Virus genome (UHGV): UHGV-0169625
Source: a virus
Length of the DNA stretch: 44,509 nt
Direction: 5' to 3' (one strand)
Shown here: in pieces, positions 7,521-33,354 of the stretch
How positions within the stretch are numbered: the first letter of the stretch is position 1
How the letters are laid out: each line of letters starts with the position of its first letter
The notes under the pieces: model-generated
Told to the model about the DNA's origin: nothing
Databases searched by the model: none
What the model saw: only the letters and a program-made list of their open reading frames with translations
Made by a program: the position numbers and the translations under genes

Positions 7521-7552
7521 TCTCAAACCCTCATTATTAGTTAACGAAACCA

Positions 7553-11249: not shown

Positions 11250-11558
11250 TTGGATAAATTTACTGAAACAGTGACGGGGTGGCTTCTCGCCGCCGCACTG
11301 GTCGGTGGATTGGTCGGGCTAAGACAACATAAAAAGTCTATATCCGGGCCGATTGACGGACTGGTATTTCTTCTCACCGGCTTCGCGTGTGCCATTTTCG
11401 GCGCACCTCTTGCGGCTCAATGGTTCGGTATTACTGGTGAGCGCGAGATAGCTGGCCTCGGATTCATCATTGCCATTCTCTGGATGCCTATCTATTCCCG
11501 CCTTTCTGGCATCGTATCGGGCGGCGATATTGCCCGCCCAGGAGGACCGCATGACTGA
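11250..11558 (+). CDS. holin (three predicted TM segments), TTG start
   Basis: 102 aa; hydrophobic stretches GWLLAAALVGGLVGL, LVFLLTGFACAIFGAPLAA, GLGFIIAILWMPIY; immediately upstream of endolysin. Confidence 0.6.
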   Translation: MDKFTETVTGWLLAAALVGGLVGLRQHKKSISGPIDGLVFLLTGFACAIFGAPLAAQWFGITGEREIAGLGFIIAILWMPIYSRLSGIVSGGDIARPGGPHD

Positions 11559-11823
11559 GCTATTCTGGTTTGTCGTAATGCTGGCGATGGGCGCTTCGTC
11601 CCTGTTCAACGTGTATAATGAACACGTGGACGACGGGCTATTTGGGCGTGTGCTCTATATCCTGACTGCTATCGTCTGCGCCGCCGGGTGTATCCACCTG
11701 TTACAAGGCAGCATGTCACCTACGTTGCCCGAGACGTTAATCACATTAGTTGCGCTGCGTCAGATTCGTCAGGCGTGGCTGTCGTATGGAGGACATAAGT
11801 GTGTCTCGAAATATTTCAGATAA
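11551..11823 (+). CDS. holin/antiholin-like membrane protein (two TM segments)
   Basis: start trimmed to ATG 11551 (overlaps holin stop); LFWFVVMLAMGASSLF and VLYILTAIVCAAGCIHLL. Confidence 0.45.
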   Translation: MTELFWFVVMLAMGASSLFNVYNEHVDDGLFGRVLYILTAIVCAAGCIHLLQGSMSPTLPETLITLVALRQIRQAWLSYGGHKCVSKYFR

Positions 11824-12286
11824 TGGATTGCATTTCACTGCCGCATTTGAGGGGTTCCGTGGAACTGCGTATCGTGCTACCCCGAATGAGAAGTACCTGA
11901 CTATTGGTTACGGGCACTACGGGCCAGACGTAACGCCCGGAAAGACCATCACGCCGGGACAAGGACTCCTGCTACTGAATCGCGATATGGCTAAGGCCGT
12001 AGCTGCGGTTGACGCAGCAGCACACCATTCACTGGCACAGGCGCAGTTCGATGCAGTGTGCGACCTGGTGTATAACGCGGGTGCTGGTGTGATTGCAGCT
12101 ACTACAGGCACGGGTAAGGCGCTGCGTTCCGGTGATATTGCGACTCTGCGGGATAAGCTGGCGCTGTTCATCAACCAGAACGGCAAACCGTTACTTGGCC
12201 TGCGTCGCCGTACAGCCGGTCGTTTGGCGCTGTTCGACGGTAAACCGTGGCGGGAGGCGGAAGCTATCGGGAGGGCTGTTAAATGA
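11786..12286 (+). CDS. endolysin, phage lysozyme (GH24-like)
   Basis: AAFEGFRGTAYRATPNEKYLTIGYGHY matches the lysozyme catalytic region (E...D...T); start set to first ATG 11786, in-frame GTG 11801 has a better SD. Confidence 0.8.
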   Translation: MEDISVSRNISDNGLHFTAAFEGFRGTAYRATPNEKYLTIGYGHYGPDVTPGKTITPGQGLLLLNRDMAKAVAAVDAAAHHSLAQAQFDAVCDLVYNAGAGVIAATTGTGKALRSGDIATLRDKLALFINQNGKPLLGLRRRTAGRLALFDGKPWREAEAIGRAVK

Positions 12287-14194: not shown

Positions 14195-14365
14195 ATGTTC
14201 AGTGACATTAACGCAGCAATAGAAGAAGCAATCTGGCGCCGGTACAACGGCGATCAACAACGGCACTTCTGCCTGGTGCAGCGCGGTAACATGATTGCCG
14301 TAGTGCAGGACCGCGATAATAAATACCCAAATGCAATGTGGACGACGAGGAATTTCTTAGGATGA
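14195..14365 (+). CDS. hypothetical small protein (56 aa)
   Basis: ATG ORF coupled to both neighbours; below track cutoff. Confidence 0.3.
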   Translation: MFSDINAAIEEAIWRRYNGDQQRHFCLVQRGNMIAVVQDRDNKYPNAMWTTRNFLG

Positions 14366-14598
14366 TTACCAGCATTCCGAACCTGATTAAAGAATTTGGC
14401 ACGATGGCCGAGACATGCCGACAAACCGGCCTCAACGAAATGACGATTGCGAAGTACAGTAAAGACGTTAACTGTGAGCGCCACGTAATTTATAACAACC
14501 GTCTCATGACGCACGTTAAGACAAGCCCTGTGTTATTCACCCGCCGGGGTATCACTAAAACTGAGCAACGTATCGCACGAGAGGAGGGTGATGTATGA
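14362..14598 (+). CDS. hypothetical protein (78 aa)
   Basis: start trimmed to ATG 14362 (ATGA overlap). Confidence 0.4.
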   Translation: MITSIPNLIKEFGTMAETCRQTGLNEMTIAKYSKDVNCERHVIYNNRLMTHVKTSPVLFTRRGITKTEQRIAREEGDV

Positions 14599-18200: not shown

Positions 18201-19277
18201 ATGCTATTAACTTTAGCGTCACAGGGTTTATCTATGAGCTTACTTACATCCCTAATCAGCCACCAGATATGGCTGCAACGCACCGCATCCGGTGAAGTGA
18301 AAGACCTCGCACCGTTCCTTCAGGAGATGCGGGACGAAATCAAACGGCAGGTGCTGTTATTCGGCGACGACGGGCGAAGCACCGCGCGACTGAATAAACT
18401 GTTACGCGACCTTGAAGAAGCACTTACCGCGCTTACCGGTGACTGGCAAACGAAGCTGACAGAAGACCTTAAGGAGCTGGCCGCGTATGAGGCTGAGTGG
18501 AACGTAAAGACACTGGCAACCAACGTTAACGCGGAATTTGTTACGCCTACCGCCGAACAAGTGTGGGCCGCTGCTGAGTTTCAACCGCTCTCACTGAGCG
18601 ACAAGCCAGTTGATTTCGTGAAGCTGATGGAAGGCTGGGGTGAAACGGAAGTATCGCGCCTTGTAACCGGCGTTAAGATGGGCTTTGTACAAGGTCAAAC
18701 CACACGGCAGATTGTTAAGAATGTTGTAGGTGCTGGTGGGCTGGCGGACATCTCTGAACGCAACGCGGCTACGGTAATCCGCACCGCGCTTTCCCATGTA
18801 TCAAACGAAGCCCGTAACGAGACGTACCGTCAGAACGACGACATCATCGAGAAATACGAGTGGGTGTCAACGCTGGACAGCCGTACCAGTACGATTTGCA
18901 GAGCCAGAGACGGAATGACATGGGAAATTGGTAAAGGGCCGATGCCCCCCGCCCATCCGAACTGTCGGTCGTGCACGGCGCCAGTAATCAGTTCCGAGTT
19001 CGACTTCCTAGATAAAGGTGCAAAACGCGCGGCTAAGGGTGCGGACGGCGGTATGCAGGTAAGCGCAGACACCACCTATTACGAGTTCCTGAAACAGCAA
19101 CCGGCATGGTTCGTGGATGAAGCACTCGGCCCGGTGCGGGGTAAGATTTTCCGCAACAGCGGTATATCGCCGGAAGAGTTTCGCGTAATATCTGTAGATG
19201 GTTTCGGGAATCCGCTGACGCTTAAGCAGATGGCGGAACTCGATAAACGTGTTGCTGATTATCTGAAAGGGGAATAA
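18201..19277 (+). CDS. head morphogenesis protein (Mu F / SPP1 gp7-like)
   Basis: 358 aa, directly after portal; by position and general similarity to minor head protein F pattern, not searched. Confidence 0.5.
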   Translation: MLLTLASQGLSMSLLTSLISHQIWLQRTASGEVKDLAPFLQEMRDEIKRQVLLFGDDGRSTARLNKLLRDLEEALTALTGDWQTKLTEDLKELAAYEAEWNVKTLATNVNAEFVTPTAEQVWAAAEFQPLSLSDKPVDFVKLMEGWGETEVSRLVTGVKMGFVQGQTTRQIVKNVVGAGGLADISERNAATVIRTALSHVSNEARNETYRQNDDIIEKYEWVSTLDSRTSTICRARDGMTWEIGKGPMPPAHPNCRSCTAPVISSEFDFLDKGAKRAAKGADGGMQVSADTTYYEFLKQQPAWFVDEALGPVRGKIFRNSGISPEEFRVISVDGFGNPLTLKQMAELDKRVADYLKGE

Positions 19278-19738
19278 TGATGGGCTTTTTCAAAGTAACT
19301 GATGTGCTGTCACGTCGTGTAGTCCAGTACGCCCGCGTGTCTGGCTCTGGCGAGAACGTGGTATTTATCGAAGATGAAAGTGTACTGGGTACACCAGTAG
19401 ACGATATGCCGTTTGCGGATAAAACCGGTATTGCGTTGCCAGCCGCGGGTATGCTTTATGAAATTCCGTATCTGGCTGACGCAGGCGACGTGTACTTCTC
19501 GGCGCAACCGCAGGACGCTGAACTGGCGGACGGCAGCGCAACTATCACTGTCGAAGTTAAGGCGGGCAAAGCGCCGTATGCTCTTACCTGGTACAAAGAC
19601 GGTAAGGAAGTTGTAAACGCACCTGAAGAGGCCTTGTCTCTGACGGTTAACGCAGCAGGTGAATACTTCGTTAAAGTCACCGATGCCGGTGGCGTAGAGG
19701 CCGTCAGTAAAGCGGCGAAGGTAACTAAGCCAGAATGA
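19277..19738 (+). CDS. Ig-like domain protein (probable capsid decoration)
   Basis: C-terminal ATITVEVKAGKAPYALTWYKDGKEV...EYFVKVTDAGG resembles a bacterial Ig-like domain; paralogous to 22475..22813. Confidence 0.5.
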   Translation: MMGFFKVTDVLSRRVVQYARVSGSGENVVFIEDESVLGTPVDDMPFADKTGIALPAAGMLYEIPYLADAGDVYFSAQPQDAELADGSATITVEVKAGKAPYALTWYKDGKEVVNAPEEALSLTVNAAGEYFVKVTDAGGVEAVSKAAKVTKPE

Positions 19739-19743
19739 TAAAA

Positions 19744-19765
19744 AGCCCCGTTAAGGGGCTTTTTA
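19744..19765 (+). terminator. rho-independent terminator
   Basis: AAAAGCCCCGTTAAGGGGCTTTTT, stem flanked by A and T runs. Confidence 0.7.
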
Positions 19766-19828
19766 GTGCCTGTGATTATTCCAGTTATTCCACTAAATTG
19801 TAAATGTTGGAATAAACTATTCGAATAG

Positions 19829-19857
19829 TTGACTTTTCACTGAAAATATGATAAGCT
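19829..19857 (+). promoter_or_regulatory. candidate promoter abutting a 16-bp perfect palindrome
   Basis: TTGACT (19829-19834), 17-nt spacer, TAAGCT (19852-19857); AACTATTCGAATAGTT palindrome at 19815-19830 overlaps the -35. Confidence 0.35.
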
Positions 19858-19864
19858 CCACCTG

Positions 19865-20035
19865 AGCTTGTGAAGTATGAACAAGCGACCGCGGCGCGGG
19901 CAGGTAACGGAGCGGGACGTAAGTCCTGAGTGTAGTTACGCTGACGCGTTCGGAAGGGCCATACTCTATTGCTTGTGTAAAAAGTAACTGGTTTACTGAG
20001 ATTACGCCGTTTCTATGTTTAAATGATAAGGACTA
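19865..20035 (+). ncRNA. candidate structured leader/ncRNA upstream of spanin genes
   Basis: about 170 nt without SD-led ORF between candidate promoter and terminator 20038-20062; several local dyads (CTTGT...ACAAG, CCGCGG, ACGCGT). Confidence 0.3.
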
Positions 20036-20037
20036 GC

Positions 20038-20062
20038 GCCCCGCTTTATGGCGGGGCTTTAC
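20038..20062 (+). terminator. rho-independent terminator 20 nt upstream of Rz start
   Basis: stem GCCCCGC/GCGGGGC, 6-nt loop, then TTTACTT. Confidence 0.55.
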
Positions 20063-20081
20063 TTATCGAGAAAGGAGAAAC

Positions 20082-20468
20082 ATGAATCTTAAAGCAACTG
20101 TCGTAGCGGGAGCATGTTTCATCATCCTGGCTTACGCACACGGCATCTACCAGTATCGCAGCGGCTGGAACGAAGGCCGGGCGAATCTCGTTTCGCAGCA
20201 ACAGCATGAAGCACAAGCTGAGTTAGCGAAGAAAACACAACGGCAGCAGCAGGATGAATCAAAGGCCGCCGCCGCCGACAACGAAGGCAAGACGAAATCA
20301 GAGGTCATTACCCGTGAAGTCGTTAAGTACATTAAAACGCCTGGTCGCAGCGTGTGCACTTTCGATGATGCTCGCGTCCTGCTCAAGTCCCGAGCCGTCG
20401 CAAACGCCAATTCCATACCCGGATACGACAATGATGCAGCCGCCGTGCAAACTGGCCGCACCAAGTAG
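20082..20468 (+). CDS. i-spanin (Rz-like)
   Basis: 128 aa; AAAGGAG SD; N-terminal TM segment ATVVAGACFIILAYAHGIY then charged coiled-coil periplasmic region. Confidence 0.65.
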   Translation: MNLKATVVAGACFIILAYAHGIYQYRSGWNEGRANLVSQQQHEAQAELAKKTQRQQQDESKAAAADNEGKTKSEVITREVVKYIKTPGRSVCTFDDARVLLKSRAVANANSIPGYDNDAAAVQTGRTK

Positions 20469-20577
20469 CGATGCCGACGAGGATTTGGCTATCGACGTCC
20501 AGAACGCCGAATGTGTACGGCAACTGAGGCTGAAAGTGTTCATGTTGCAGGATTACGTGAGGAATATTCTGGAATAG
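20314..20577 (+). CDS. o-spanin (Rz1-like lipoprotein) in +1 frame overlapping Rz
   Basis: GTG start with GAGG upstream; signal peptide plus lipobox (V)KSLSTLKRLVAACALSMMLASC, then Pro-rich PEPSQTPIPYP; starts inside Rz and extends beyond it. Confidence 0.6.
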   Translation: MKSLSTLKRLVAACALSMMLASCSSPEPSQTPIPYPDTTMMQPPCKLAAPSSDADEDLAIDVQNAECVRQLRLKVFMLQDYVRNILE

Positions 20578-20659
20578 TTGCCTTGCATGTTGGAATAATT
20601 TATTCTTGACATGTAAATCCGGGCGGCCCGGGTTCCAACGTCCAGGGGACATACTGACT

Positions 20660-21361
20660 ATGAATCGTTTTTTACGTTATCCGTTCCAGGAAGAAGCTGG
20701 AGCAGAAGATAAAGCTGGTGGCGGTGACGCACCAAAAATGTTCACCGCTGAAGAAGTTCAGGCGCTGATTGAGAAAGAAGTTGCCGGGCTTAAGGCAAAT
20801 CAGGAAGCGTTGCTGGCGGAGAAGAAAGAAGCCGCTCGCAAAGCAAAAGAGGCCGAAGAACAACGGCAGCGCGCGCACCAGGAGGCGTTAAAGGCTGCTG
20901 GTAAGATGGACGAGTTCGAAAAAACGATTCGTAGCCAGTATGACCCGGTGTTAGCCGAGAAAGATGGTCGCATCTCCAAAATGGCGGAGCGCATCCTCGG
21001 CAGCGAACGTAAAGCGGTGTTAGGCTCTTTTGCGGGTGACTTTATTACCCCGGAAGCAGCGGACATTCTTGCACCGTTCGTCAAGACTGAGTTCGAAGGT
21101 GATGATGTGGTTACTAAGTTTGTCGGCCCAGACGGCAACGTAATCACGACTGACCCGGAACAGTTCCGCAAATACCTGCGCGAACACAAAGCGTTTTCGC
21201 ATTTGATTAAAGCAAATGCAGCTTCCGGCGGCGGGGCTTCCGGTAGCAAAGGCGGCGGGGCCGCACCAGCGTTTAAAGACATGAGTGAAGCAGAGCGTTT
21301 AGCCCTGTATAAATCGAACCCTGCCGAATTTGAACGGCAACTTAAAGCCCTGAGGAAATAA
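20660..21361 (+). CDS. scaffolding protein (putative)
   Basis: start trimmed to ATG 20660; Ala/Glu/Lys-rich helical protein directly upstream of major capsid gene. Confidence 0.55.
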   Translation: MNRFLRYPFQEEAGAEDKAGGGDAPKMFTAEEVQALIEKEVAGLKANQEALLAEKKEAARKAKEAEEQRQRAHQEALKAAGKMDEFEKTIRSQYDPVLAEKDGRISKMAERILGSERKAVLGSFAGDFITPEAADILAPFVKTEFEGDDVVTKFVGPDGNVITTDPEQFRKYLREHKAFSHLIKANAASGGGASGSKGGGAAPAFKDMSEAERLALYKSNPAEFERQLKALRK

Positions 21362-21363
21362 TA

Positions 21364-22413
21364 ATGGCAATTACCACTATCGGCGATATCGTAACTGGCA
21401 ACATCCCGGTCCTGGCGTCTTACATGACCGAGGACCCGGTAGAAAAAACTGCGTTCTTCCAGTCCGGTATTCTGACCCCGACTCCGCACGCTGCCGAGAT
21501 TGCCCGCGGCCCGTCCAACGTCGCTAATATTCCGTTCTGGAAAGCGATTGACACTTCCATCGAGCCTAACTACTCGAACGACGTATACCAGGACATCGCT
21601 ACCCCGCGTAACGTGCAGACCGGCGAGATGATGGCGCGCGTTGCATACCTGAACGAAGGCTTTGGCCAGGCGGACCTGACCGTTGAACTGACCAGCCAGA
21701 ACCCGCTGCAATCTGTGGCTTCTCGCCTGGATAACTTCTGGCAGCGTCAGGCACAACGCCGTCTGATTGCTACTGCGCTCGGTCTGTACAATGACAACGT
21801 AGCTGCTACCGACGAATACCATGAGCAGAACGACATGGTAATCGACGTGTCCTCTACTCTGGGCTTCGACGCTGGCGCGTTCATCGACGCTACCCAGACT
21901 ATGGGTGATGCACTGATGGGTAACGGTGGTGAAGTGCTGGGCGCTATCGCTATGCACAGCTTCGTATACGCGCAGGCGCGTAAGCAGCAGCTCATTGACT
22001 TCACCAGAGACGCCGACAACGACACCCTGTTTGCCACCTACCAGGGCTACCGTGTGATTGTTGACGACAGCATGACTGTAGTCGGTACCGGCAGCAGCCG
22101 TAAGTTCATCTCCATCATCTTCGGCAACGGCGCTATCGGTTACGGAGAAGGTAACCCGACCAATCCGCTGGCATATGAGCGCGAAGAGTCCCGCGGCAAC
22201 GGCGGTGGCGTCGAAACCCTGTGGACACGTAAGACTTGGTTGCTGCACCCACTGGGCTACCGCTTCACCAGCGCGGAGATCACCGGCAACGGCACCGAGA
22301 CCGTCGCACGCTCCGCTTCCTGGCAGGACCTGGCGAACGCCTCCAACTGGAACCGTGTTGTTGGCCGTAAGCACGTACCGATTGCCTTCCTGGTAACTGG
22401 TGTAGGGTCTTAA
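21364..22413 (+). CDS. major capsid protein
   Basis: 349 aa, GAGGAAA SD, follows scaffold and is followed by a strong terminator; by position and size. Confidence 0.75.
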   Translation: MAITTIGDIVTGNIPVLASYMTEDPVEKTAFFQSGILTPTPHAAEIARGPSNVANIPFWKAIDTSIEPNYSNDVYQDIATPRNVQTGEMMARVAYLNEGFGQADLTVELTSQNPLQSVASRLDNFWQRQAQRRLIATALGLYNDNVAATDEYHEQNDMVIDVSSTLGFDAGAFIDATQTMGDALMGNGGEVLGAIAMHSFVYAQARKQQLIDFTRDADNDTLFATYQGYRVIVDDSMTVVGTGSSRKFISIIFGNGAIGYGEGNPTNPLAYEREESRGNGGGVETLWTRKTWLLHPLGYRFTSAEITGNGTETVARSASWQDLANASNWNRVVGRKHVPIAFLVTGVGS

Positions 22414-22430
22414 GGTTAAGATATAATCGA

Positions 22431-22454
22431 GAGGGACTTCGGTCCCTCTTTTCA
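22431..22454 (+). terminator. rho-independent terminator after capsid gene
   Basis: stem GAGGGAC/GTCCCTC, loop TTCG, then TTTTCATTT. Confidence 0.7.
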
Positions 22455-23547: not shown

Positions 23548-24198
23548 ATGGCGAAGACTAAAACAGAGATATTTACGCTAATCGGGTCAGAATTACCGGA
23601 TAACACAACCGGGCTAATCACCCCGGAGAAGTTACGCGGGGTGCTAACCCAAATGGCCGACTCTCCTATTTATGCCACTCCTGGTGTGAAAGAGGTTGAG
23701 GTGCTTCGTGCGGCGTCTACTGTCGTCCAGGCTCCGTCCGCGGTTGATACCGCGTTGCAGCTAACCTTCGGTGCCGCGCAAGGCAGCGCCTCAGACCTGG
23801 TTATGATTAACGCGGCGGGTCTGGTGACTTTCAACACCGCCGGTAACTACGCCGTTCGCATCAAGTTACAGGCCGGGCGCACGGGCGCTAGCGGGACATC
23901 TATCCTGCTATCGCGCATCCTCATCAACGGCGCTCAGTACGGCTCTCCCGCTGCCACAAAACTGGTAAGTGCCGACACCACAATCCCGATTGAATCTCGC
24001 GTCGTTATCAATCCTACCGCAGGTCAGACGTTTTCCGTGCAGATTATGCGGGATAGCGCCTTCCGCACTACTGGTTATTTCGAGACTGGAGGCCGCCTGA
24101 TGAATAAGTTCACATGTGGTGTAGTTTTTGGTTTTCTTACCGCGGTAGTCTTGCACAGTTACGGTGTTCTTTTGACGCTGCAAGAGGTGCTAAAATGA
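23548..24198 (+). CDS. hypothetical virion structural protein
   Basis: 216 aa track ORF in head-tail joining region; hydrophobic C-terminal extension. Confidence 0.45.
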   Translation: MAKTKTEIFTLIGSELPDNTTGLITPEKLRGVLTQMADSPIYATPGVKEVEVLRAASTVVQAPSAVDTALQLTFGAAQGSASDLVMINAAGLVTFNTAGNYAVRIKLQAGRTGASGTSILLSRILINGAQYGSPAATKLVSADTTIPIESRVVINPTAGQTFSVQIMRDSAFRTTGYFETGGRLMNKFTCGVVFGFLTAVVLHSYGVLLTLQEVLK

Positions 24199-24554
24199 GC
24201 ACCGCTTTCAGTAAACGTATGCAAGGCGTCGGTACACGCCTGCTAACCAAATTTGGTAGCACGGTATCCCTGGTTCGCGCTGGCTCGAAAGTGTGGGATG
24301 AAGTTCTCGGTGAGTATGTCCGGTCCGCGGATGAAGTGCTGCCGTTGAAAGCTGTTCCGGTTCCTGTTAACGCAGGACTGGTGAACGGTACGACGATTCA
24401 GGCGGGCGACATGATTGTTAAAGCGGATTGCAGTGTCGTACCGAAGATGGAAGACAAGGTGCAATCCGGCGGCGAGCAATGGTCTGTCGTAGCCATTGAG
24501 AAGAAGATGGTTAACGATGATGTCGTGGCATACTTTATTCAGGTGAGAAAATGA
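24195..24554 (+). CDS. head-tail joining protein (putative)
   Basis: start trimmed to ATG 24195 (ATGA overlap, AGAGGTG SD). Confidence 0.4.
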   Translation: MSTAFSKRMQGVGTRLLTKFGSTVSLVRAGSKVWDEVLGEYVRSADEVLPLKAVPVPVNAGLVNGTTIQAGDMIVKADCSVVPKMEDKVQSGGEQWSVVAIEKKMVNDDVVAYFIQVRK

Positions 24555-24946
24555 GTTTCGCGCTTGATGTCTCTAAGTTCGTGGAAAAGGCGAAGAAGAA
24601 CCCAGAGAAGGTGATGCGTCAGGTGTCTATCAAGCTGTTTTCCGCTATTATAAAGGCGAGTCCGGTAGATACAGGCCGCTTTCGTATGAACTGGATGGTA
24701 TCTGGTGGTACTCCTGCTTCCGGGATTACGGACGCTACGGATAAATCAGGAAACACAGCAACCGGAAACGCTACAAGTTTCGTACTGAAAGCCGCCGACT
24801 GGCGCGAGTTCACGCTGACAAACAACCTGCCGTATGCTCAACGGCTGGAGTATGGCTGGTCGCAGCAAGCGCCCGCCGGGATGGTCAGGACTAACGTGTC
24901 TCGCTTCCAGCAACTCATTAATGAAGAAGCCAACAAGGTGAAATAA
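24551..24946 (+). CDS. HK97 gp10-like tail component
   Basis: 131 aa; KASPVDTGRFRMNWMVS matches the gp10-family vDTGrlr motif from recollection. Confidence 0.55.
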   Translation: MSFALDVSKFVEKAKKNPEKVMRQVSIKLFSAIIKASPVDTGRFRMNWMVSGGTPASGITDATDKSGNTATGNATSFVLKAADWREFTLTNNLPYAQRLEYGWSQQAPAGMVRTNVSRFQQLINEEANKVK

Positions 24947-25359
24947 TGGGCTACTTTGAGGACTTAACCAAAGCGTTTGATGTGCCGTTGGTAGCCTTCG
25001 GGAACGCAAACGGCATCAAGGTTGCGCTTGAAAACATCGACGCGCCGACGTCAACCGATACGCCGTATCTGGCGAGTTACATGTTGCTGGCAGATACGGA
25101 ACAGGCGGATTTGTTCTTCACCGAGCAACGCTCTGGTATCTATCAGGTCGACATTAACTACGCATCGGTGAAAGGTAGCGCGCCAATCAATAAAATGGCA
25201 GACTTACTTAACACGGCGTTTAAAGCAGGTAAGTCATTTTCACGTAACGACATCTGCGCCGAGGTTCAATCGGTTAGCCTGGGGCCGCTGATTGTAGAAA
25301 ACGGATGGGCCAAAAGACCATTGTCAATTAACTTTATTACATTCACCAAGAGGCTGTGA
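24946..25359 (+). CDS. tail terminator-like protein (putative)
   Basis: 137 aa, coupled start, immediately upstream of major tail protein; positional. Confidence 0.35.
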   Translation: MGYFEDLTKAFDVPLVAFGNANGIKVALENIDAPTSTDTPYLASYMLLADTEQADLFFTEQRSGIYQVDINYASVKGSAPINKMADLLNTAFKAGKSFSRNDICAEVQSVSLGPLIVENGWAKRPLSINFITFTKRL

Positions 25360-25361
25360 AT

Positions 25362-26528
25362 ATGGCTACAACTCCTTTTAAGGGCGCGACTACCGCGCAA
25401 TTCTATGTGGCGGAAGTCACCCCGGGCGTAACACCGGCTAACCCTGTCTGGTCGCCGTTGCGTAACACTGGCGGTGTTCCTGCTATCACCCGCGACACGC
25501 TGACCTCCAACGAACTGGACGGCAGCCGTGAAACTACATCCATCCGCACCGGTAACAAACAGGTTAGCGGTGAATACGCGATCGAGCTTAGCTCGAAAAG
25601 CCAGGATGACTGGCTGGCTGGTGCTTTAGGCTCTACGTGGCAATCCGGTGTTTCCCTGTCCAGTCTGTCGATTACCGTCGCACCCGCGGGCAAGACGTTC
25701 ACACGCGCTACCGGCAGTTTTATCGCTGACGGAGTTGGGGTAGGCGACCTGATTGCATTTACCGATTTAACAGGCGATAACGCAAAACCATTTATTGTTA
25801 CTGCAGTAACGGCTACGGTTGTTACTGGTGCGGGCATCCAACACACCCTGACCACCGAGACAAAAACTAGTAAGGCTAAAACCGGCGACACGCTGGAAAC
25901 CGGTAACACGTGTAAGACGTTCTCTATCCTTACCTGGTACAAAGGCCAGTGCGGCGGTACTGACGCGTACACGTTAACCAAAGGCGTGGAAGTTTCTGGT
26001 TTTACCATCGAACAGGCTGTTAACGCGATGGTAACTGGCAGTTTCCCGTTCATCGGGCGCAGCCAGGAGATTCTCGCCACGCCGCCGACAGGTTCTGATT
26101 TCTCCTCTGTCACGTTTGGTGACGAGCCGTTCTCTTCGGTTGACGTTTCTGTGTTCGATGGCTCAACACCGTTGCGCTGCGACAGCCTGACCATCACCAA
26201 CGATAACAGCGCGTCCGCTCAGTTCGAACTCGGTAATACTAACGTAGCGTTTATTGAGCGTAGCCGCGCGGCTAACACCTTCTCCATCTCCGGCAAGCTG
26301 TACGACATGGCTATGATTCAGAAGTTTATCAACGAACAACAGGTAGAGATTAACTCTATTCTGGCGGGGGTAAACGGGGCTATGTCTTTCAGTCTGAAAC
26401 GTGCAGAACTCACGGCGGTTACGCCAGAGATTGGCGGGCCTGAGTCAATCACTCAGAGCATAGAAGGACAGTCCACAGGCAATCAATACCAGTCGTCTAT
26501 TGTTATCCAGCGTATCACCTACGCATAA
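25362..26528 (+). CDS. major tail (tube) protein (putative)
   Basis: start trimmed to ATG 25362 (AAGAGG SD); Thr/Gly/Ser-rich 389 aa; followed by strong terminator. Confidence 0.5.
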   Translation: MATTPFKGATTAQFYVAEVTPGVTPANPVWSPLRNTGGVPAITRDTLTSNELDGSRETTSIRTGNKQVSGEYAIELSSKSQDDWLAGALGSTWQSGVSLSSLSITVAPAGKTFTRATGSFIADGVGVGDLIAFTDLTGDNAKPFIVTAVTATVVTGAGIQHTLTTETKTSKAKTGDTLETGNTCKTFSILTWYKGQCGGTDAYTLTKGVEVSGFTIEQAVNAMVTGSFPFIGRSQEILATPPTGSDFSSVTFGDEPFSSVDVSVFDGSTPLRCDSLTITNDNSASAQFELGNTNVAFIERSRAANTFSISGKLYDMAMIQKFINEQQVEINSILAGVNGAMSFSLKRAELTAVTPEIGGPESITQSIEGQSTGNQYQSSIVIQRITYA

Positions 26529-26534
26529 AACTAA

Positions 26535-26556
26535 GGCCCCTTTCGGGGCCTTTTTC
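26535..26556. terminator. bidirectional intrinsic terminator
   Basis: AAGGCCCCTTTCGGGGCCTTTTT with A-run upstream and T-run downstream; lies between convergent genes. Confidence 0.75.
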
Positions 26557-26560
26557 TCAC

Positions 26561-26737
26561 TCACTCACTTTTGAATGGCATTTCGTAGAAGTTAGTTAAC
26601 TGCCCCCGGTCACTCCGTTCTGTCATTTCTTTCGAAGCCTCTTCCTTACTACCCACGGCGTAAATATCTACCCACTCGTCCCATTCTTTGTCGTATACGC
26701 GGATTACGTATATTGTTTTCATTACATTCTTACTCAT
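26561..26737 (-). CDS. hypothetical small protein (58 aa), antisense island
   Basis: ATG ORF on minus strand; start overlaps stop of 26730..26936 gene. Confidence 0.35.
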   Translation of the reverse strand: MSKNVMKTIYVIRVYDKEWDEWVDIYAVGSKEEASKEMTERSDRGQLTNFYEMPFKSE

Positions 26738-26936
26738 CAATATTACTCCTGTACTCCCGTAACTTCTCCAGACTTTCTATTGCTTCTGCTAAGTCGGTTC
26801 CTGTGTCTTTGTGTCCGCGAAGGCCCATACACAACAGCTTCTTCAATGCGTGCTGTAGCGCCGGGTCGCGTATATCGAAGGCGCGTAGCACATCATAAAC
26901 GTCTACTGTCATAGTGCTGCCGTGAGTGTTTGTCAT
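26730..26936 (-). CDS. hypothetical protein (68 aa), antisense island
   Basis: start trimmed to first ATG (26936); track shows GTG alternative at 26960. Confidence 0.4.
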   Translation of the reverse strand: MTNTHGSTMTVDVYDVLRAFDIRDPALQHALKKLLCMGLRGHKDTGTDLAEAIESLEKLREYRSNIDE

Positions 26937-26965
26937 TGTGCGGTTGTATTTATTTGTCACTGTTA

Positions 26966-27015
26966 ACTCTCTTAAATCTGGCTATGCCTGACTCTCTTAA
27001 ATCTGGCTATGCCTG
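26966..27015. repeat. perfect 25-bp tandem duplication (2 copies)
   Basis: ACTCTCTTAAATCTGGCTATGCCTG at 26966-26990 and again at 26991-27015; spans the stop codon of gene 26972..27175. Confidence 0.9.
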
Positions 27016-27175
27016 ACTCGTTAATGCTGCCTATTTCAAAGAAGCTGCGATATTTAGGCGAATACATTCTTACGTCGCCGTTCTCTAGGGTGACCCCTTC
27101 ATATACAGCGCCTACTTCGAATCCATTTTTCTCCGCGTACGGACTCACATCGGTGCATTCATACATATCTTTCAT
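26972..27175 (-). CDS. hypothetical protein (67 aa), antisense island
   Basis: track ORF; last 14 codons are encoded inside the tandem duplication. Confidence 0.4.
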   Translation of the reverse strand: MKDMYECTDVSPYAEKNGFEVGAVYEGVTLENGDVRMYSPKYRSFFEIGSINESGIARFKRVRHSQI

Positions 27176-28302
27176 CCCAGCATCTCCGGTGAAATAGTTA
27201 AACGTGCGACCTCGCCATATTCGGCACTATAGGTAATTACATTTGCGCTACGGCCTGACATCCATCCACCGCGCGAGGCGTAGGCGTCTTTAGCCGCCAG
27301 GGTGCGGTGTTGCTCAACAATCATGTTACGGCTTTCCACAATCTTCTGATGGTGGAGGTGGCCTACGTGGGCGTAGCTGTAAACGCTTTCGCCAAATGCT
27401 TTGCGGAACTTGGCAATCATAACCGGTTCGATAGCGTCGAATCGTGCCTTATGCCCGTGGTGAAAGAACAGCGTCGTTTTGCCGTGTTGCACCATCTTGT
27501 AAACATCTGGCGACGTATCGACGAACACACGAGGCTCATTGTCGTACAGCGTACTAAACATCTCAGCTAACCAAATCATTCCGCTTTCGTCGTGGTTTCC
27601 TTGCACGATAAGCAAGCGAACATTTTTATGCTTAACCAGCGCCATACCGACAACACGGCGGACCATACGAATCATGTAGCGGACAAGTTTCTGATAGCGA
27701 GTGTCCGCATCAAGGGCGTGACCGCTTGCAGGCGTAACGGCAACCAGACTGTCGAAGTGCGCGAAGTCGCCCAGCAGGTTAATAACTCCAGTTCCTGCAT
27801 CCGGCGCTTTCTGGAACGCCGCATCGAACCAGCGAGAAAACAGGTCTTCCGCAATCTTCATATCCCAGTCGTCGCCACTCTCGTCGGCCCAGGCCAGCAT
27901 ACCAAGATGGAAATCAGATACAGTGTAAAGATTGAGTAGTTTATCGTCACGTTTGGTGCGAACGGCTTTAACTGGTACAACGGGAGTAATCTCCGACTTC
28001 ATGCCTTCGATTACGGCTTTCATCAACTCGACCTGACGTTCAGCGTCAGTGTCTGTCTTAACCCATTGCAACTTAGTGTTGCCGAACTCGTCCACAAGCG
28101 ACGACGTTCCTTTAATCTTGTAGCCGTCCGGGACAAGATGGCTAACGTCACGACCGTGACCTACGCCTTTCTTCGCCAGCTTCGCTTTACGGATACGAAT
28201 AACGCGGTCTGAGATGCCGTATTTACGGGCGATGTCTACATTCTTCATCCCGGCGTTCAATTCTTCCTGTAACTGTTCGTCGGTTATTTTCTTCTGGGCC
28301 AT
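27172..28302 (-). CDS. HTH domain fused to calcineurin-like metallophosphoesterase
   Basis: 376 aa; N-terminal NVDIARKYGISDRVIRIRK (HTH); metallophosphatase motif series SDFHLG (D-x-H), GDFAHFD, GNHDE, HHGH, GHLHH. Confidence 0.6.
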   Translation of the reverse strand: MAQKKITDEQLQEELNAGMKNVDIARKYGISDRVIRIRKAKLAKKGVGHGRDVSHLVPDGYKIKGTSSLVDEFGNTKLQWVKTDTDAERQVELMKAVIEGMKSEITPVVPVKAVRTKRDDKLLNLYTVSDFHLGMLAWADESGDDWDMKIAEDLFSRWFDAAFQKAPDAGTGVINLLGDFAHFDSLVAVTPASGHALDADTRYQKLVRYMIRMVRRVVGMALVKHKNVRLLIVQGNHDESGMIWLAEMFSTLYDNEPRVFVDTSPDVYKMVQHGKTTLFFHHGHKARFDAIEPVMIAKFRKAFGESVYSYAHVGHLHHQKIVESRNMIVEQHRTLAAKDAYASRGGWMSGRSANVITYSAEYGEVARLTISPEMLG

Positions 28303-28367
28303 GCTTACTTCCTCGTGTTTAGGATTTGTCCTATTTAACCACAGTGGATTCCTTTAAATAAAGGCAA

Positions 28368-28694
28368 CTATTTACTTTCTGCGCCTATTGCCCATCCAGT
28401 CATTACCATTTGCAGACGGGTGGCTGTCAGTAGGCTGTAAAACGCGTCTCCGTTTTTCTCTACCGAACGTATTACCGTGTATGTTACGGCTTGCGGAGGC
28501 AGGCCCGATTTACCAACCTCTACGGCGGACTCGCACTCGCGAACTGTAGAGTCCTTAAATGCCTTTACAAGAGTAGGGTTGGCTTTCTCAAGCACACCAG
28601 AAGTCATAAGAACAGATTCACTAAATACCTGTTCGCACGGGGACCCAAAAGTAGCAAAAGACATAAACCCCAGAGCTAGTACTAATTTACGCAT
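28368..28694 (-). CDS. exported protein with signal peptide, first gene of antisense island
   Basis: 108 aa; MRKLVLALGFMSFATFG signal peptide; GAGGAA SD; about 22 nt downstream of leftward promoter. Confidence 0.5.
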   Translation of the reverse strand: MRKLVLALGFMSFATFGSPCEQVFSESVLMTSGVLEKANPTLVKAFKDSTVRECESAVEVGKSGLPPQAVTYTVIRSVEKNGDAFYSLLTATRLQMVMTGWAIGAESK

Positions 28695-28712
28695 AATTAT
28701 TTCCTCGGTAAG

Positions 28713-28751
28713 TTACAAGTGAATAGTACCCTATTATATTGGGGTGCGCAA
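28713..28751. promoter_or_regulatory. overlapping divergent promoters sharing one palindromic operator
   Basis: leftward: TTGCGC (28751-28746), 17 nt, TACTAT (28728-28723); rightward: TTACAA (28713-28718), 16 nt, TATATT (28735-28740); 28720-28737 is the inverted copy of ATAATAG-N4-CTATTCA. Confidence 0.45.
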
Positions 28752-28858
28752 GTAGTGTGCTAGAATAAGTTTGCGCCTAGTGTCGCACACGAAAAGCGGG
28801 TGGTTCCCGTCTGGCGCGTCAACCTTAACCTGTAACCTCTTAACCAAAGGATTAAAGA

Positions 28859-29275
28859 ATGAAACTTTCTGATTTTTATTTTGCCGACCGCCACGCTACT
28901 GGCACTAAAATGCCTATCCTTCTGCCGAGTGGTAAAGACTCCGGTGAATGGCTGCAGGTCATTGGCCCCGATTGTGATGCGGGTGTTCGTGCAGGCCGCG
29001 CCTACACAACGGCAATTCGACGCCTTACGGAAGAACTTGCGCCATTAGATAAAGAGTGTGAGGCGCTGAATAACTGGGCGCGCTATAACGATGAGAAGGG
29101 CTGGCGGGTGATGGACCTGAACAAGCAGCTCGCTGTCGAAATCGTCACCGGTTGGTCATTCGACGAGCCGTTCAGCAAAGAGGCGCTGGCTAACCTGTTC
29201 GACCAGTACAGCGGACTGGCAGAAGCCGTGGTTAAACACCACACCGATAGCCGCGAGAAACTCTCGGAAAAGTAA
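28859..29275 (+). CDS. tail assembly chaperone (G-like)
   Basis: 138 aa, AAAGGA SD, immediately upstream of tape measure; -1 frame stays open from 29251 to 29637. Confidence 0.6.
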   Translation: MKLSDFYFADRHATGTKMPILLPSGKDSGEWLQVIGPDCDAGVRAGRAYTTAIRRLTEELAPLDKECEALNNWARYNDEKGWRVMDLNKQLAVEIVTGWSFDEPFSKEALANLFDQYSGLAEAVVKHHTDSREKLSEK

Positions 29276-29637
29276 AAGCGCTGTATGAATTTGCGCAATG
29301 GTGCTTTGTCGACCGCCACAAACGTAAGCAATTCGACGACATCGCGGCAGGCCACCAGGCGGCTTTGATTGCAATGGGCGTGATTAAAGAACCGCAGATG
29401 AAAGAAGCGACGGGGCCAGAATGCCCCGTTTCTCTTATCGACGCGTTCGAGAAATACCGTGCCATTAAATTCCTACAGCGCGAAACAGATGATACTATCG
29501 TTATAATCCCGCGCGATGCGCTCAAATGGCAAGATTTGGTAGCGTTTCGTGATGTCGCCGGTTACGGCATAAGTTTGTTCGAGGCCGAGGTTATCATGGG
29601 CTTAGACGGAATATTTGAGGGCAGAGAAGATGGCTGA
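28859..29637 (+). CDS. predicted tail assembly chaperone -1 frameshift fusion (GT-like)
   Basis: -1 frame has its last stop at 29248-29250 and is open to 29637; candidate shift site CGGAAAAGTAA at the last sense codons of the zero frame; downstream ORF has only a TTG start. Confidence 0.4.
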
Positions 29638-31942
29638 TACGGCTTCCCTAATTGCCAGAGTAAAAACAGAAGGTGCTGACGTAGCTGCCAAACAGCTTGA
29701 CGCTATGGCGTCGTCTGCAGACCGCGCGGATACCGCGGTAAACAAGCTGACTCCGGACGTTAATAAAGTAAACTCCACCACGTCTAAAGCGGCCTCCGAC
29801 GGTTTCGCTAAGTTCCGTAACGCCGCAGGGCAGGTTGGCTTCCAGGTGCAGGACATGGTGGTCCAGTTGCAATCCGGCACGTCTGCATTCGTCGCGATAG
29901 GGCAGCAAGGTTCGCAGCTTGCCGGTGCTTTCGGTCCAGGTGGCGCGGTGCTAGGTGCGGTAATAGCGCTAGCGTCGGCGGTTGGTGGCGTTCTTTACAA
30001 ATCATTAACTGAGGCTGAGGGTAGCTCAAAAGACCTGGAAGCCGCACAGAAACAGTTAAAGGACACCTTCCAACAAACGGCATCTGGCTCTCTTGAATTG
30101 ACAGATGGTCTTATCCAGCTTACCCAAATCAGCAGAGAAGCGGCGGAGACTCAGCTTGCTCTGGCTAAGGCTAACGCGGACCTTATTGCACAGCAAACAG
30201 CTAAAGCCGTTCGTGAGGACGCAGAGTCGTGGGAAACGTGGAAGGCCTCCACGACATCGGCGATCAGCCAGTATGATGCGCTGGTCTCTAAGGGCGCCGA
30301 TGTAGGCGACACATTAGAAAAACTAGGCGGCACTTACGAGGGTAACATCGTAGGCGTCAACATGCTGGCGCAGAATATCGCGGAGCTTAGCAGTAAGTTC
30401 GGGGTTAACCGTGACCAGGCGCTGGAGATGATAGCGGCGCAGAGTGCGTTTAACAAAGAACCAACCGCCGAGAATGCCCGTCGTATCGCCGATGTGTTTA
30501 CCGACTGGCTAGGTAATACAAAACAGTTGAACCCGGAACTTATCCGCCTGACCGACAACGCCAACAAGAACGCCACGGCACTGGAGAACGCGGAGAAGTC
30601 AGCAAACGCGGCGGCAGAGGCCCAAAAGAATCTCGGTCGTAACGTCAACTCGACCACGCAGAGGTTCCAGGAACAGAACGAAGCTATCGTCAAAAACCAG
30701 CAAATTGCCATCTTAAGTGACCGTGAGCGCGTCCGGGCGCAAGCTGAACTGGATAAGCAGGCGTTTGCTAAACGTGAAGCTGTCACCAAAGAACAGATAG
30801 CCGCGTATAACGCTGCCCGTGACGCGGAAGCACAGCAAGACATCGCTCGCATCGACGCGACCGAAAAAGCGAAGGCAGACCGCGAGGCTAAATCGAACGA
30901 GAAACGTCTGGCGGCACAAGCCAAACGCGAAGAAACTGCAGCGCAACGCCAGAAGAAAGCCGCGGAAGATTTCCTCGCTACGGTCGACCGAACAACGGGG
31001 GATGAAATTTCTCGTATCACAGCGGCAGAAGAGCAGAAACTGGCGAAACTTGAAGAGTTCAACCGCGCCGGAACAATAAGTCAGCAGCAGTACGAAAACG
31101 CCAAAACGCAGATTATGCTCACCGCCGAGCAGGCCCGACAGGAAGAACTGGATAAGAAAAGAAAAGAAGCCCAGGAAAAGCAGCAGAAAGGTGACGACTT
31201 CATGGCTCAGATTATGGGCCAGAACGCCGCTGAGCTTGAGCTTCTCGACATCCAGGAACAGCAGAAACTGGCGGTCGCAGATAAGTACCGTGAGCAAGGG
31301 CTTATTAGTGAGAAGCAGTATCAGGCCGCGCTTAACGCCATCAACGAGCAATACGCAACCAAGCGTGCCGACGCAACGGCAACCGCCTTCGGTAACATGG
31401 CCTCAAACATCGGGTCTGCGTTGGGTGAGGCTTCTGGCGCGTACAAGGCATTCGCTATCGTACAGGCCACCATAGCCACGTACACCGCAGCTATCGAGGC
31501 GTACAAGTCCACGGCGGCTATCCCCGTAGTCGGCCCGTTCCTGGCCCCTGTAGCCGCTGCCGCTGCCGTTGGGGCGGGTATGGCGCAGATTTCCGCTATC
31601 AGGTCCGCGCGTGAGCAGGGCGGTCAGTTGTCCGCAGGGCAGGCTTCCACCATCGCAGAACGTGGTAAACCAGAAGTTATCATGCCCGCTGGCGCATCGC
31701 GTGTTCGCACCGCACAGCAGATGAAGGAAATTATGGGCCAAAACGGGTCTTCTTCCGGCCCATCTAATGTTACCATCGTAAATAACACATCGAGTCAGAT
31801 TGGCAACGTATCCACTGAGCAAGATGATGAAGGCCGTTTGCGTATCATCATCGAAGAGCAAGTGGCGGCCTCTTTGCAGAACAGCAACAGTAAGATTAGC
31901 AAGGCTCGCAAGGCCACAAGAAACGCGCCGGGGTTCAAGTAA
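29630..31942 (+). CDS. tail tape measure protein
   Basis: about 770 aa, Ala/Gln/Glu/Lys-rich coiled coil with C-terminal hydrophobic segment; start trimmed to ATG 29630. Confidence 0.85.
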   Translation: MADTASLIARVKTEGADVAAKQLDAMASSADRADTAVNKLTPDVNKVNSTTSKAASDGFAKFRNAAGQVGFQVQDMVVQLQSGTSAFVAIGQQGSQLAGAFGPGGAVLGAVIALASAVGGVLYKSLTEAEGSSKDLEAAQKQLKDTFQQTASGSLELTDGLIQLTQISREAAETQLALAKANADLIAQQTAKAVREDAESWETWKASTTSAISQYDALVSKGADVGDTLEKLGGTYEGNIVGVNMLAQNIAELSSKFGVNRDQALEMIAAQSAFNKEPTAENARRIADVFTDWLGNTKQLNPELIRLTDNANKNATALENAEKSANAAAEAQKNLGRNVNSTTQRFQEQNEAIVKNQQIAILSDRERVRAQAELDKQAFAKREAVTKEQIAAYNAARDAEAQQDIARIDATEKAKADREAKSNEKRLAAQAKREETAAQRQKKAAEDFLATVDRTTGDEISRITAAEEQKLAKLEEFNRAGTISQQQYENAKTQIMLTAEQARQEELDKKRKEAQEKQQKGDDFMAQIMGQNAAELELLDIQEQQKLAVADKYREQGLISEKQYQAALNAINEQYATKRADATATAFGNMASNIGSALGEASGAYKAFAIVQATIATYTAAIEAYKSTAAIPVVGPFLAPVAAAAAVGAGMAQISAIRSAREQGGQLSAGQASTIAERGKPEVIMPAGASRVRTAQQMKEIMGQNGSSSGPSNVTIVNNTSSQIGNVSTEQDDEGRLRIIIEEQVAASLQNSNSKISKARKATRNAPGFK

Positions 31943-33354
31943 TGAGCGACTTATATTTCCCACGTAGCCTTAAGCCAGTGGTATCGAAAGGCTACTCAAT
32001 GACCAGACGCAACAACGTCTGGAGCGTCGATTTAGCCGGTGGCGGGGTGCGTCAGGGGCGTGACACGTATTACGACGTGTTTCCGATAAGCGTAACCCTG
32101 ATTACATCTGCACTAGGGCGGCAGGCGTTCCTGTCGTTCCTCGAAAAAGTCGATGGTGGTGCGTCAAGTTTCTGGATGGCGCACGACTTCGGCATGGGCA
32201 TCGAGGATTATCAGGTAACAATCACGTCAACCATCGCCGAGTCCACAGAAGATGGGATTAACTGGACAATCACTTTCACAGCAACCGCCGAGAAATCCCC
32301 GTTCCAGAACCTCGAGAATCAGTGCCTGATTAACAATCTGCCAGATTTGTATGGTTGCTACGGGGATTGTCTGGGTAGTTTCCTGAAAATATACGCGAAC
32401 TATGAGACTACGTTCCCGCGCATCTGGAGCGATGAAGGGCCCGCAGGATACCCGCCGATTAACCTTCTGGCGTCCGCCCTGGATAGCCGCATTGTGTACG
32501 ACGGGCCGCAGGTTTATTACATCAACCGCAACGGCAATCTTGTGCAATCAGCCACTAATGAATGGCCCCTAACATTTATTGATGGTGTTGCCGTTGGGCG
32601 TGTGCCGCCAGAAAACGCTGCTACAAATTTACTCTATAAATCTGAGGATTATTCTATTCAAGACGGCGCCTGGAGTAGCGTAAGGGTTAGCGTAAACTAC
32701 GGCGAAACTGAGGCGCCTACAGGAGAGAATACCGCAGGAAAAGTTACACCAACAACTGATAACAACACCCATACAATTATACAGACTATTACACCGGACG
32801 GTAATTCTGAATATGTGCTATCAGTATTTCTCAAGAGTAACGGCTACACCAACGCTATGGTTCAGATAGGCATCTTCGCAAGCCAAACAGCGCGCAACGT
32901 GGTACATGTAGATTTATCAAATGGGGTTATCACTTCGGCCTCCGATAGTAGCCGCTGTGGCATTCATATAATCGGCGACGGTTGGTACCGGGTGTGGACG
33001 AGAGTATCCACCATTGAATCCCCCACGACAATAAATGCTTCGGTATACGTAGCCGGTACCCGCGGTAATACTTCATTTGCGGGAGACGGTGTTAGTGCTA
33101 TATCAGTTTTTGGCGCCCAAATGGAGAAATCTACCAATTCATCGTCGTATGTTAAAACCGAAGAAAATTTAATTACACGCCCCGCGGCATCGGCAAAAGT
33201 AGCCATGAATGGTGCGACAAGCATCGACATTACATACTCTGATGGTTCCACCGTAAACGTGCCCGCAGTAGATAACTACGCCACCATCCCCCAAGCGGAT
33301 TCGGCGTGGGGTAGTAAATATATCACCCGTATTGATTTTAATGTGGACGGTTAA
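31942..33354 (+). CDS. minor tail protein (distal tail protein position) with C-terminal extension
   Basis: 470 aa, start overlaps TMP stop; positional. Confidence 0.45.
   Translation: MSDLYFPRSLKPVVSKGYSMTRRNNVWSVDLAGGGVRQGRDTYYDVFPISVTLITSALGRQAFLSFLEKVDGGASSFWMAHDFGMGIEDYQVTITSTIAESTEDGINWTITFTATAEKSPFQNLENQCLINNLPDLYGCYGDCLGSFLKIYANYETTFPRIWSDEGPAGYPPINLLASALDSRIVYDGPQVYYINRNGNLVQSATNEWPLTFIDGVAVGRVPPENAATNLLYKSEDYSIQDGAWSSVRVSVNYGETEAPTGENTAGKVTPTTDNNTHTIIQTITPDGNSEYVLSVFLKSNGYTNAMVQIGIFASQTARNVVHVDLSNGVITSASDSSRCGIHIIGDGWYRVWTRVSTIESPTTINASVYVAGTRGNTSFAGDGVSAISVFGAQMEKSTNSSSYVKTEENLITRPAASAKVAMNGATSIDITYSDGSTVNVPAVDNYATIPQADSAWGSKYITRIDFNVDG

Follow-up and report, generated by a model that had tools for sequence, protein, structure and literature searches.

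The late transcription unit of phage lambda leads from promoter pR' through the 194-nt 6S leader and terminator tR' into the genes S, R and Rz/Rz1, and unlinked lysis genes are known as well, e.g., from phage T4. In phage HK022, the put RNAs (putL/putR) are RNAs of ~70–100 nt with two stem-loops whose 5' end coincides with the transcription start or closely follows it; a genome can hold two copies, each with a promoter in front and terminators behind it (PMC9378689). The present analysis concerns the spanin genes Rz/Rz1 (20082–20577) and the regions flanking them in the virus genome UHGV-0169625, the entire analysed stretch of which (44,509 nt) is referred to as the window. Positions 19000–21500 of the window match 484 phage records in all, with 98 % identity to Escherichia phages vB_Eco_ORH_001 and Hrm2 and 93–95 % identity to numerous further Kagunavirus genomes, among them K1ind1-3 and K1G; the window therefore represents a Kagunavirus (Guernseyvirinae) genome. 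What the analysis adds at this locus are (i) two predicted promoter modules (P1 and P2) sharing an operator-like dyad and (ii) a covariation-supported family of leader RNA that is not contained in Rfam.

The interpretation favoured here, with a probability of roughly 0.55, is that the locus displays the standard head-module layout of the Guernseyvirinae, with a cis-acting leader that gates read-through or mRNA fate and with P1 and P2 being co-regulated. Both the regulatory role of the leader and the transcription starts at P1 and P2 are what we infer from the sequences.

Structured leader RNA upstream of Rz

An earlier note on this DNA, compiled from the sequence without database searches, had placed an untranslated leader ahead of Rz. 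Such a leader is indeed present: the non-coding stretch between the upstream Hoc-like gene and Rz (19739–20081) comprises 343 nt and is 95–99 % identical in 181 phage records, and ~200 nt of non-coding DNA lie behind promoter P1. The latter is predicted to drive a non-coding transcript of ~200 nt, the first ~100 nt of which would form two hairpins. The structured core (19862–19965, + strand; 122 bits with the covariance model R1) consists of a 5'-terminal hairpin termed P0 (19866–19886, +) and a long irregular hairpin with the RNA stems P1–P3 and a conserved asymmetric internal loop (19889–19953, +), followed by conserved AAGGGCC and CUAUUG stretches.

When folded singly, all 24 variants adopted the same architecture despite sequence differences in the two upper stems. 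Model R1 was built from Kaguna-type and Ivi-type sequences only and finds the left-out lineages, i.e., Jersey-type leaders with E values of ~1e-5 to 1e-6 and the paralogues of Schulenburg and G AB-2017 with 1e-11 to 1e-14. In an alignment of 32 distinct sequences fitted to R1, 95.9 % of cells pair, as compared to 25–43 % if the partners are slid by 1–3 columns. Both-side (compensatory) changes are found in 18 of the 29 base pairs, and the observed covariation score was reached by none of 500 shuffles. Since independent single-sequence folds agree and the left-out lineages are recovered, the covariation signal is regarded as real. A structure-guided alignment was needed, since plain MAFFT combined with RNAalifold yielded the outer stem only, the inner stems being misaligned by indels. 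Across the whole window, no covariance model of Rfam matched at the gathering threshold, and a search of 19700–20700 gave weak chance-level matches only (up to E 10). Judged by its covariation, the leader is a previously undescribed structured RNA family. A 36-codon open reading frame (ORF) at 19877–19987 (+), which is listed as hypothetical in some relatives, was rejected as a gene. Since it has no family match and its frame is broken by a 1-nt indel in a paralogue (in Jerseyvirus the ATG region is replaced), the leader is considered not to be coding.

The leader RNA is confined to Guernseyvirinae. No match was obtained in 5,426 E. coli genomes and, apart from chance matches, only Guernseyvirinae DNA was found in IMG/VR (a pattern scan gave contigs with the size of Guernseyvirinae genomes and one chance match) and in GTDB (15 matches in the genome scan, 2 of them real). 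The two real GTDB matches are taken as stray phage DNA: L131 (JAEWLW010000073.1) is a contig of a 'Bacillota' metagenome-assembled genome and in fact a Kagunavirus fragment, and L138 (NZ_JACVEL010000048.1) is a 738-bp Taishania scaffold carrying a Jersey-type leader copy with a weak (~65 %) alignment to the window. A 44-kb E. coli 'plasmid' with two leader copies (CP088689.1) is taken as a Kagunavirus genome. A host or plasmid origin of the RNA was rejected, there being no E. coli match and the sole 'plasmid' match being a phage genome. Cornellvirus and the Serratia phages were likewise rejected as carriers of the RNA family: their leaders share short motifs (TAGCG, TTCGG, GGAAGGG), but these leaders are not detected by R1.

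Among the records sharing the leader are Salmonella phages with an Rz protein that is only 63–73 % identical, a contrast implying that recombination has left a boundary close to where Rz begins. Mosaicism of this kind is observed in L046, L047 and L060, which combine a Kaguna-type leader (95–97 % identical) with an Rz of 63–73 %. In some 43 relatives, the core promoter together with the initial ~110 nt of the RNA is found once more, in the divergent early intergenic region. This second copy points towards the rightward early genes and is devoid of GGAATA sites. Since promoter and RNA core thus recur together upstream of early genes, the RNA belongs to its promoter and not to the spanins, and the two move jointly between early and late settings. 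At the same early place, the window contains a different promoter-leader-terminator unit (7597–7889), composed of TTGACA-17-TAAGGT, a non-coding stretch of ~270 nt and a good terminator (7869–7889), followed by the first rightward early gene.

The leader ends with a terminator-like GC hairpin (GCCCCGC-TTTAT-GCGGGGC; 20038–20057, +), which has an 8-pair stem with 7 G-C pairs and the tail TTTACTTATC. A GC hairpin follows the leader RNA in every context; the homologous hairpins of Jerseyvirus and the paralogues come without the T tract, that of Jerseyvirus having compensatory stem changes (GCCCGGC/GCCGGGC) and a poorer run of T. Only 24 nt separate the hairpin from the Rz start codon, leaving no room for a promoter; transcription of Rz/Rz1 therefore passes through leader and hairpin.

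These properties may also be read as those of an independent gene for a trans-acting small RNA, in which case Rz/Rz1 would be expressed by leak-through only and the adjacency of the spanins would be incidental. A strong promoter, a non-coding transcript of ~200 nt with a terminal GC hairpin, the conserved structure, the recurrence of promoter and RNA as one movable unit at another genomic site, and a leader identity of 95–99 % in Salmonella phages with a much less similar Rz would all agree with such a gene. This explanation is nonetheless rather unlikely, considering that the terminal hairpins of Jerseyvirus and the paralogues have no good U tract, that in both contexts the RNA is co-oriented with and directly upstream of promoterless protein genes, and that neither target complementarity nor a host homologue (5,426 E. 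coli genomes) was identified.

Predicted promoters P1 and P2 and their shared element

Conservation was assessed from alignments of 47 distinct regions upstream of the spanins and of 20 distinct Rz1-scaffold regions. At the first site, a bidirectional-terminator-like hairpin (19739–19765) with a perfect 11-bp stem (100 % complementary) and flanking A/T runs would close the upstream unit; its stem shows compensatory changes in Jerseyvirus. Next are two direct TTATTCC(A) repeats (19776–19792, +), exact matches 9 bp apart and reverse complementary to TGGAATAA. The repeats are near-invariant across the 47 distinct relatives and may represent the upstream part of an operator-like array at P1; in relatives with an inserted gene, the insert is found immediately left of this block. 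The predicted promoter P1 itself (TTGACT-17-TGaTAAGCT; 19829–19857, +) has its -35 box at 19829–19834 and its -10 box at 19852–19857, and transcription is predicted to start at ~19864–19865. Conserved at this site are the blocks TATTCC(A/G)(A/G)TTATTCC, TGTAAAT and GGAATA-N3-TATTC as well as the -35 box T(T/A/G)GA(C/T)T and the extended -10 box TG-n-TA(A/C)(G/C)CT, the TG ending the 17-bp spacer. In Kaguna-, Jersey- and Cornell-type copies and in those of the early-region paralogues, -35, TG and -10 are retained and the spacer differs from lineage to lineage, a conservation pattern that is the classic footprint of a candidate sigma70-type promoter.

A leftward promoter-like site (TTTACA-18-AATAAT with an upstream TG; minus strand, 19804 to 19775) coincides in part with the TTATTCC repeats and with the conserved block TGTAAAT. 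It would run into the bidirectional terminator here and faces inserted minus-strand genes in relatives. Some Jerseyvirus records annotate a minus-strand tRNA-Ser over the Hoc terminator (732–809 in L009); this is probably a false call, since ARAGORN finds no tRNA in the window.

The second predicted promoter module, P2 (20570–20612, +), is situated ahead of the genes for scaffold and major capsid, with a footprint extending over the 20 distinct relatives. Besides TGGAATAG, which holds the Rz1 stop codon, it comprises the -35 box TTGCCT (20578–20583), an inverted repeat GGAATAAtTTATTC (20592–20605) and the -10 box TATTCT (20601–20606; 17 bp after TTGCCT), all on the + strand. Conserved blocks are GGAATAG and TTGCCT, then, after six variable bases, TGGAATAATTTATTCTTG. 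Since the Serratia phages, which do not have the GGAATA motif, keep TTGCCC-17-TATATT in the same aligned columns as TTGCCT/TATTCT, P2 most likely corresponds to TTGCCT-17-TATTCT; the footprint TTGCCY-17-TATWYT is thus kept even without the GGAATA motif. In Cornellvirus SP-031, a minus-strand ORF is located between Rz1 and the P2 module; all of the latter, GGAATAG included, remains beside the scaffold gene. A simple consensus promoter scan called neither P1 nor P2.

Both sites share the 12-mer ATGTTGGAATAA, which occurs exactly twice in the window (19804–19815 and, within P2, 20587–20598; both +). The repeated element flanking the spanins, as described in the earlier note, is therefore real, and both copies are promoter-proximal as had been proposed, each being located at a promoter-like site with a conserved footprint. 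Two details had to be corrected: TTGAC follows the first copy after 13 nt (19829) and the second after 8 nt (20607) rather than after 8–12 nt, and the second TTGAC is no conserved part of the element, the respective TTGACA (20607–20612, +) being replaced by TTGTTA in Jerseyvirus.

By itself, the repeated 12-mer is not beyond chance in 44.5 kb: if 2 mismatches at most are allowed, one expects 3.0 matches, and at least 2 were obtained in 85 of 100 shuffles. It gains significance because (i) copy-to-copy identity reaches 17 of 19 nt, (ii) the dyad GAATA-N0-5-TATTC is found at these two places only in the window, (iii) TGGAATAA is clustered, with 4 of its 5 exact copies in the window residing inside 19776–20598, and (iv) the core is conserved across genera. 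The conserved part of the 12-mer is TGGAATAA plus TATTC, i.e., the inverted repeat GGAATA-N3-TATTC, and the ATGT part differs between genera. In element copy 1 (19804–19822, +), the core GGAATA-aac-TATTC (19809–19822) runs into the palindrome CTATTCGAATAG (19817–19828). With respect to the promoters, the dyad is positioned upstream of the -35 box at P1 (centred ~48 bp before the predicted start) and within spacer and -10 box at P2; the element did not merely become duplicated to give both copies. GGAATA-N3-TATTC together with the extra TGGAATAA half-sites is most likely the putative operator of one dimeric protein that co-regulates P1 and P2, such a protein presumably binding to these repeats.

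The A+T-rich, promoter-proximal nature of the element and the ordinary statistics of the 12-mer alone would also be compatible with a sequence that has no specific binding protein, i.e., a UP-element-like or curvature sequence shared by two strong promoters by chance. This is improbable, however, since the GGAATA-N3-TATTC dyad is strictly kept in three genera with varying neighbouring bases, further half-sites are present at helical spacing, and the element at P2 resides inside the spacer/-10 region, which is not the position of a UP element.

Proposed function of leader and promoters

In the favoured interpretation of a cis-acting leader with co-regulated promoters, P1 would start a new transcript downstream of the terminator at the end of the terminase-to-Hoc unit. 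This transcript would form two hairpins within its first ~100 nt, proceed over ~200 nt to the terminator-like hairpin and then enter Rz/Rz1. The leader may determine what number of polymerases, or what amount of stable mRNA, reaches Rz/Rz1 and the region beyond, and P2, directly after Rz1, may raise the expression of scaffold and major capsid up to the terminator at 22429–22450. Overlap of the dyad with spacer and -10 box of P2 would fit repression or timing control.

Several observations weigh against this interpretation. The dyad occupies different positions relative to P1 and P2, and the Serratia relatives are devoid of the GGAATA palindrome. The T tract before Rz is weak, and poorer in Jerseyvirus and the paralogues, so that the hairpin may terminate inefficiently. 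A switch based on pairing of the apical hairpin (19911–19927) with the 5' arm of the terminator (20029–20045) was rejected, because variants L016 and L039 alter the apical hairpin without a compensating change downstream. Finally, a scan of 17 early/middle proteins did not reveal any Q-like or N-like antiterminator; the only matches in this set were HTH_3 (4588–4803), HTH_17 (7350–7553, minus strand) and a weak NinH-like one (14338–14598).

Early mRNAs of T7 and the N leader of lambda have processing hairpins, and the long irregular hairpin might likewise be a site at which RNase III (or another nuclease or protein) trims and stabilises the downstream mRNA. Its ~23 bp are broken by the conserved asymmetric internal loop, and the stem sequences vary while loop and basal stem are conserved, suggesting recognition by a protein. 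Such processing is quite improbable as the function of the leader, since the hairpin is located ~25 nt from the predicted 5' end and little RNA would be removed. A similarly small chance is assigned to the two-hairpin RNA being, by analogy with HK022 put, a phage-specific, factor-independent riboregulator that acts on the transcribing RNA polymerase. In that case, read-through would include the leader hairpin and later terminators such as 22429–22450, and P1 would be the true late-operon switch of the Guernseyvirinae.

The locus defines a regulatory hub in a group of therapeutic coliphages and Salmonella phages that is in wide use. Should the leader RNA control read-through or mRNA fate, it would represent a compact, portable cis-regulator and provide a handle on the timing of spanin and capsid expression.

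Spanin genes and their position among the head genes

The product of Rz (20082–20468, +) is the inner-membrane spanin (i-spanin; phrog_2536, residues 1–127, E 2.7e-54), the translation of which contains the hydrophobic transmembrane segment KATVVAGACFIILAYAHGIY at the N-terminus. Rz1 (20314–20577, +) encodes the outer-membrane lipoprotein spanin (o-spanin; phrog_5672, E 4.6e-30; phrog_1267). The full +1-frame ORF holding Rz1 spans 20254–20577, and its true start is most likely the GTG at 20314, in agreement with the annotations of K1ind1 and Jersey. Translated from there, Rz1 has the signal peptide VKSLSTLKRLVAACALSMMLAS followed by C in an L-A-S-C lipobox (surrounding sequence VKSLSTLKRLVAACALSMMLAS, then CSSPEPSQTPIPYP) and a proline-rich mature part. 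The two genes overlap by 155 nt in different frames (+1), with Rz1 continuing 109 nt past the end of Rz. Accordingly, the sequence features of a two-component spanin are present (i-spanin with N-terminal transmembrane segment, o-spanin lipoprotein and +1-frame overlap), and family matches, lipobox and reading frame confirm the overlapping Rz/Rz1 pair called in the earlier note. Its separation from the other lysis genes, pointed out there as well, also holds: two holins (phrog_2359, phrog_2508) and the Phage_lysozyme endolysin (phrog_33703, PF00959) are encoded within 11250–12286 (+), i.e., 7.8 kb upstream of Rz.

The upstream terminase-to-head unit ends with the Hoc-like head decoration gene (19277–19738, +; phrog_3945, E 1e-84). 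The gene order head-morphogenesis, Hoc-like, non-coding region, Rz/Rz1, scaffold and major capsid is identically annotated in the relatives compared, i.e., K1ind1, K1ind3, Bas76 and Schulenburg on the Kagunavirus side, Jersey, horsemountain and Shelanagig (Jerseyvirus), SP-031 and GRNsp27 (Cornellvirus), and the Serratia phages Tsm2 and Smarc3. In this synteny comparison, which had been suggested with the initial observation, Rz/Rz1 and not a different gene was found at the same position in all four groups. In Dhillonvirus TheodorHerzl, i- and o-spanin genes directly follow that of the minor capsid protein and precede the scaffold gene. In the papers on phages Golestan and SeF1, the spanins appear as ORF7/8 or gp9/10, at a large distance from holins/endolysin. 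Placement of the spanins among the head genes is hence ordinary for the Guernseyvirinae and already annotated (since 2010). In Klebsiella phage klb_E, a 40 %-identical Rz homologue is located directly after the Phage_lysozyme endolysin, i.e., in the canonical place, so that the Rz gene family must have been relocated at some point. Since the placement among head genes is common to the Guernseyvirinae genera examined and Dhillonvirus, any such relocation was ancient, preceding the divergence of these subfamilies.

The earlier proposal of a spanin cassette inserted between head genes, thereby duplicating a promoter-proximal element that now flanks it, is very unlikely and not supported: both copies do bracket Rz/Rz1 and the klb_E homologue next to the endolysin attests relocation sometime, but the same arrangement exists in every Guernseyvirinae genus examined and in Dhillonvirus, the GC content of the module (0.51–0.56) equals that of its neighbours and gives no compositional signal, the copies share an operator-like core of 14–19 nt only and no duplicated segment, this core is placed differently relative to P1 and P2, the second promoter module goes with the scaffold gene (SP-031), and the Serratia phages have spanins here without the repeat.

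Downstream genes, further motifs and insertion sites

The genes for scaffold (20660–21361, +; phrog_206 for the scaffold/capsid entry and annotations of relatives) and major capsid (21364–22413, +; annotations of relatives) are followed by a strong terminator (22429–22450). The 5' untranslated region of the scaffold gene contains a hairpin (CCGGG-CGG-CCCGG; 20619–20631, +) upstream of the GGGGA ribosome-binding site. Its stem is invariant and its central loop base variable in Kagunavirus, Jerseyvirus, Cornellvirus and the Serratia phages. Dhillonvirus has a similar hairpin (GAGCGGGTGGCCTGCTC) ahead of the corresponding gene.

An intergenic motif (TAATAGnGTACTATTCA), reported as 'PHIRE promoter' for phage Golestan, occurs 7 times in the window (0.3 expected), namely at 2201, 4499, 4543, 7976 and 9510 (+) and at 12565 and 28720 (-). 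It contains the dyad AATAG/CTATT, and two of the copies are located directly upstream of a Cro-type helix-turn-helix gene (4588–4803). Relatives with a minus-strand gene after Hoc have a copy ~45 bp left of the TTATTCC repeats.

The spanin module is flanked by insertion hot spots (L002, 1849–2472; L004, 4576–5145 and 5636–6157; L003, 2269–2472; L013, 176–1030 and 2036–2215). Genes for HNH endonucleases are inserted between head-morphogenesis and Hoc. The site bounded by the Hoc terminator and the TTATTCC repeats contains minus-strand genes (sliding-clamp-like, 3'-phosphoadenosine-5'-phosphosulfate (PAPS) reductase and a small ORF), and the small minus-strand ORF of SP-031 is found between Rz1 and P2.

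Comparison with known systems

As in the case of lambda Rz/Rz1 and LysB/LysC of phage P2, the spanin genes code for an inner-membrane protein with N-terminal transmembrane segment and a small outer-membrane lipoprotein in the +1 frame. They are overlapped as in LysB/LysC and not embedded as in lambda, and differ from both pairs by residing in the head module instead of adjoining holin and endolysin. In P22, the scaffold is subject to autoregulation; by analogy only, the conserved hairpin in the scaffold 5' untranslated region sits where an autoregulatory operator could act, and it could thus serve as a translational operator.

The likeness of the leader RNA to HK022 put is architectural only and consists in two stem-loops from the transcription start and a second copy in some relatives. 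The first hairpin of the leader RNA, unlike in put, is poorly conserved in size and sequence, and a search with R1, run in one direction, gave no match up to E 10 in HK022 bases 24000–32000, which we take to cover the immunity region with putL and putR.

The lambda pR' unit differs from the present locus in that no Q-like protein was found here (17 early/middle proteins), only the spanins and not holin/endolysin follow the leader, and the leader has a conserved two-hairpin structure without similarity to any Rfam family. Both units have in common a promoter, a non-coding leader of ~200 nt, a terminator-like hairpin and lysis genes heading a unit of structural genes, as well as a protein-binding element at the promoter, which is putative in the case of P1.

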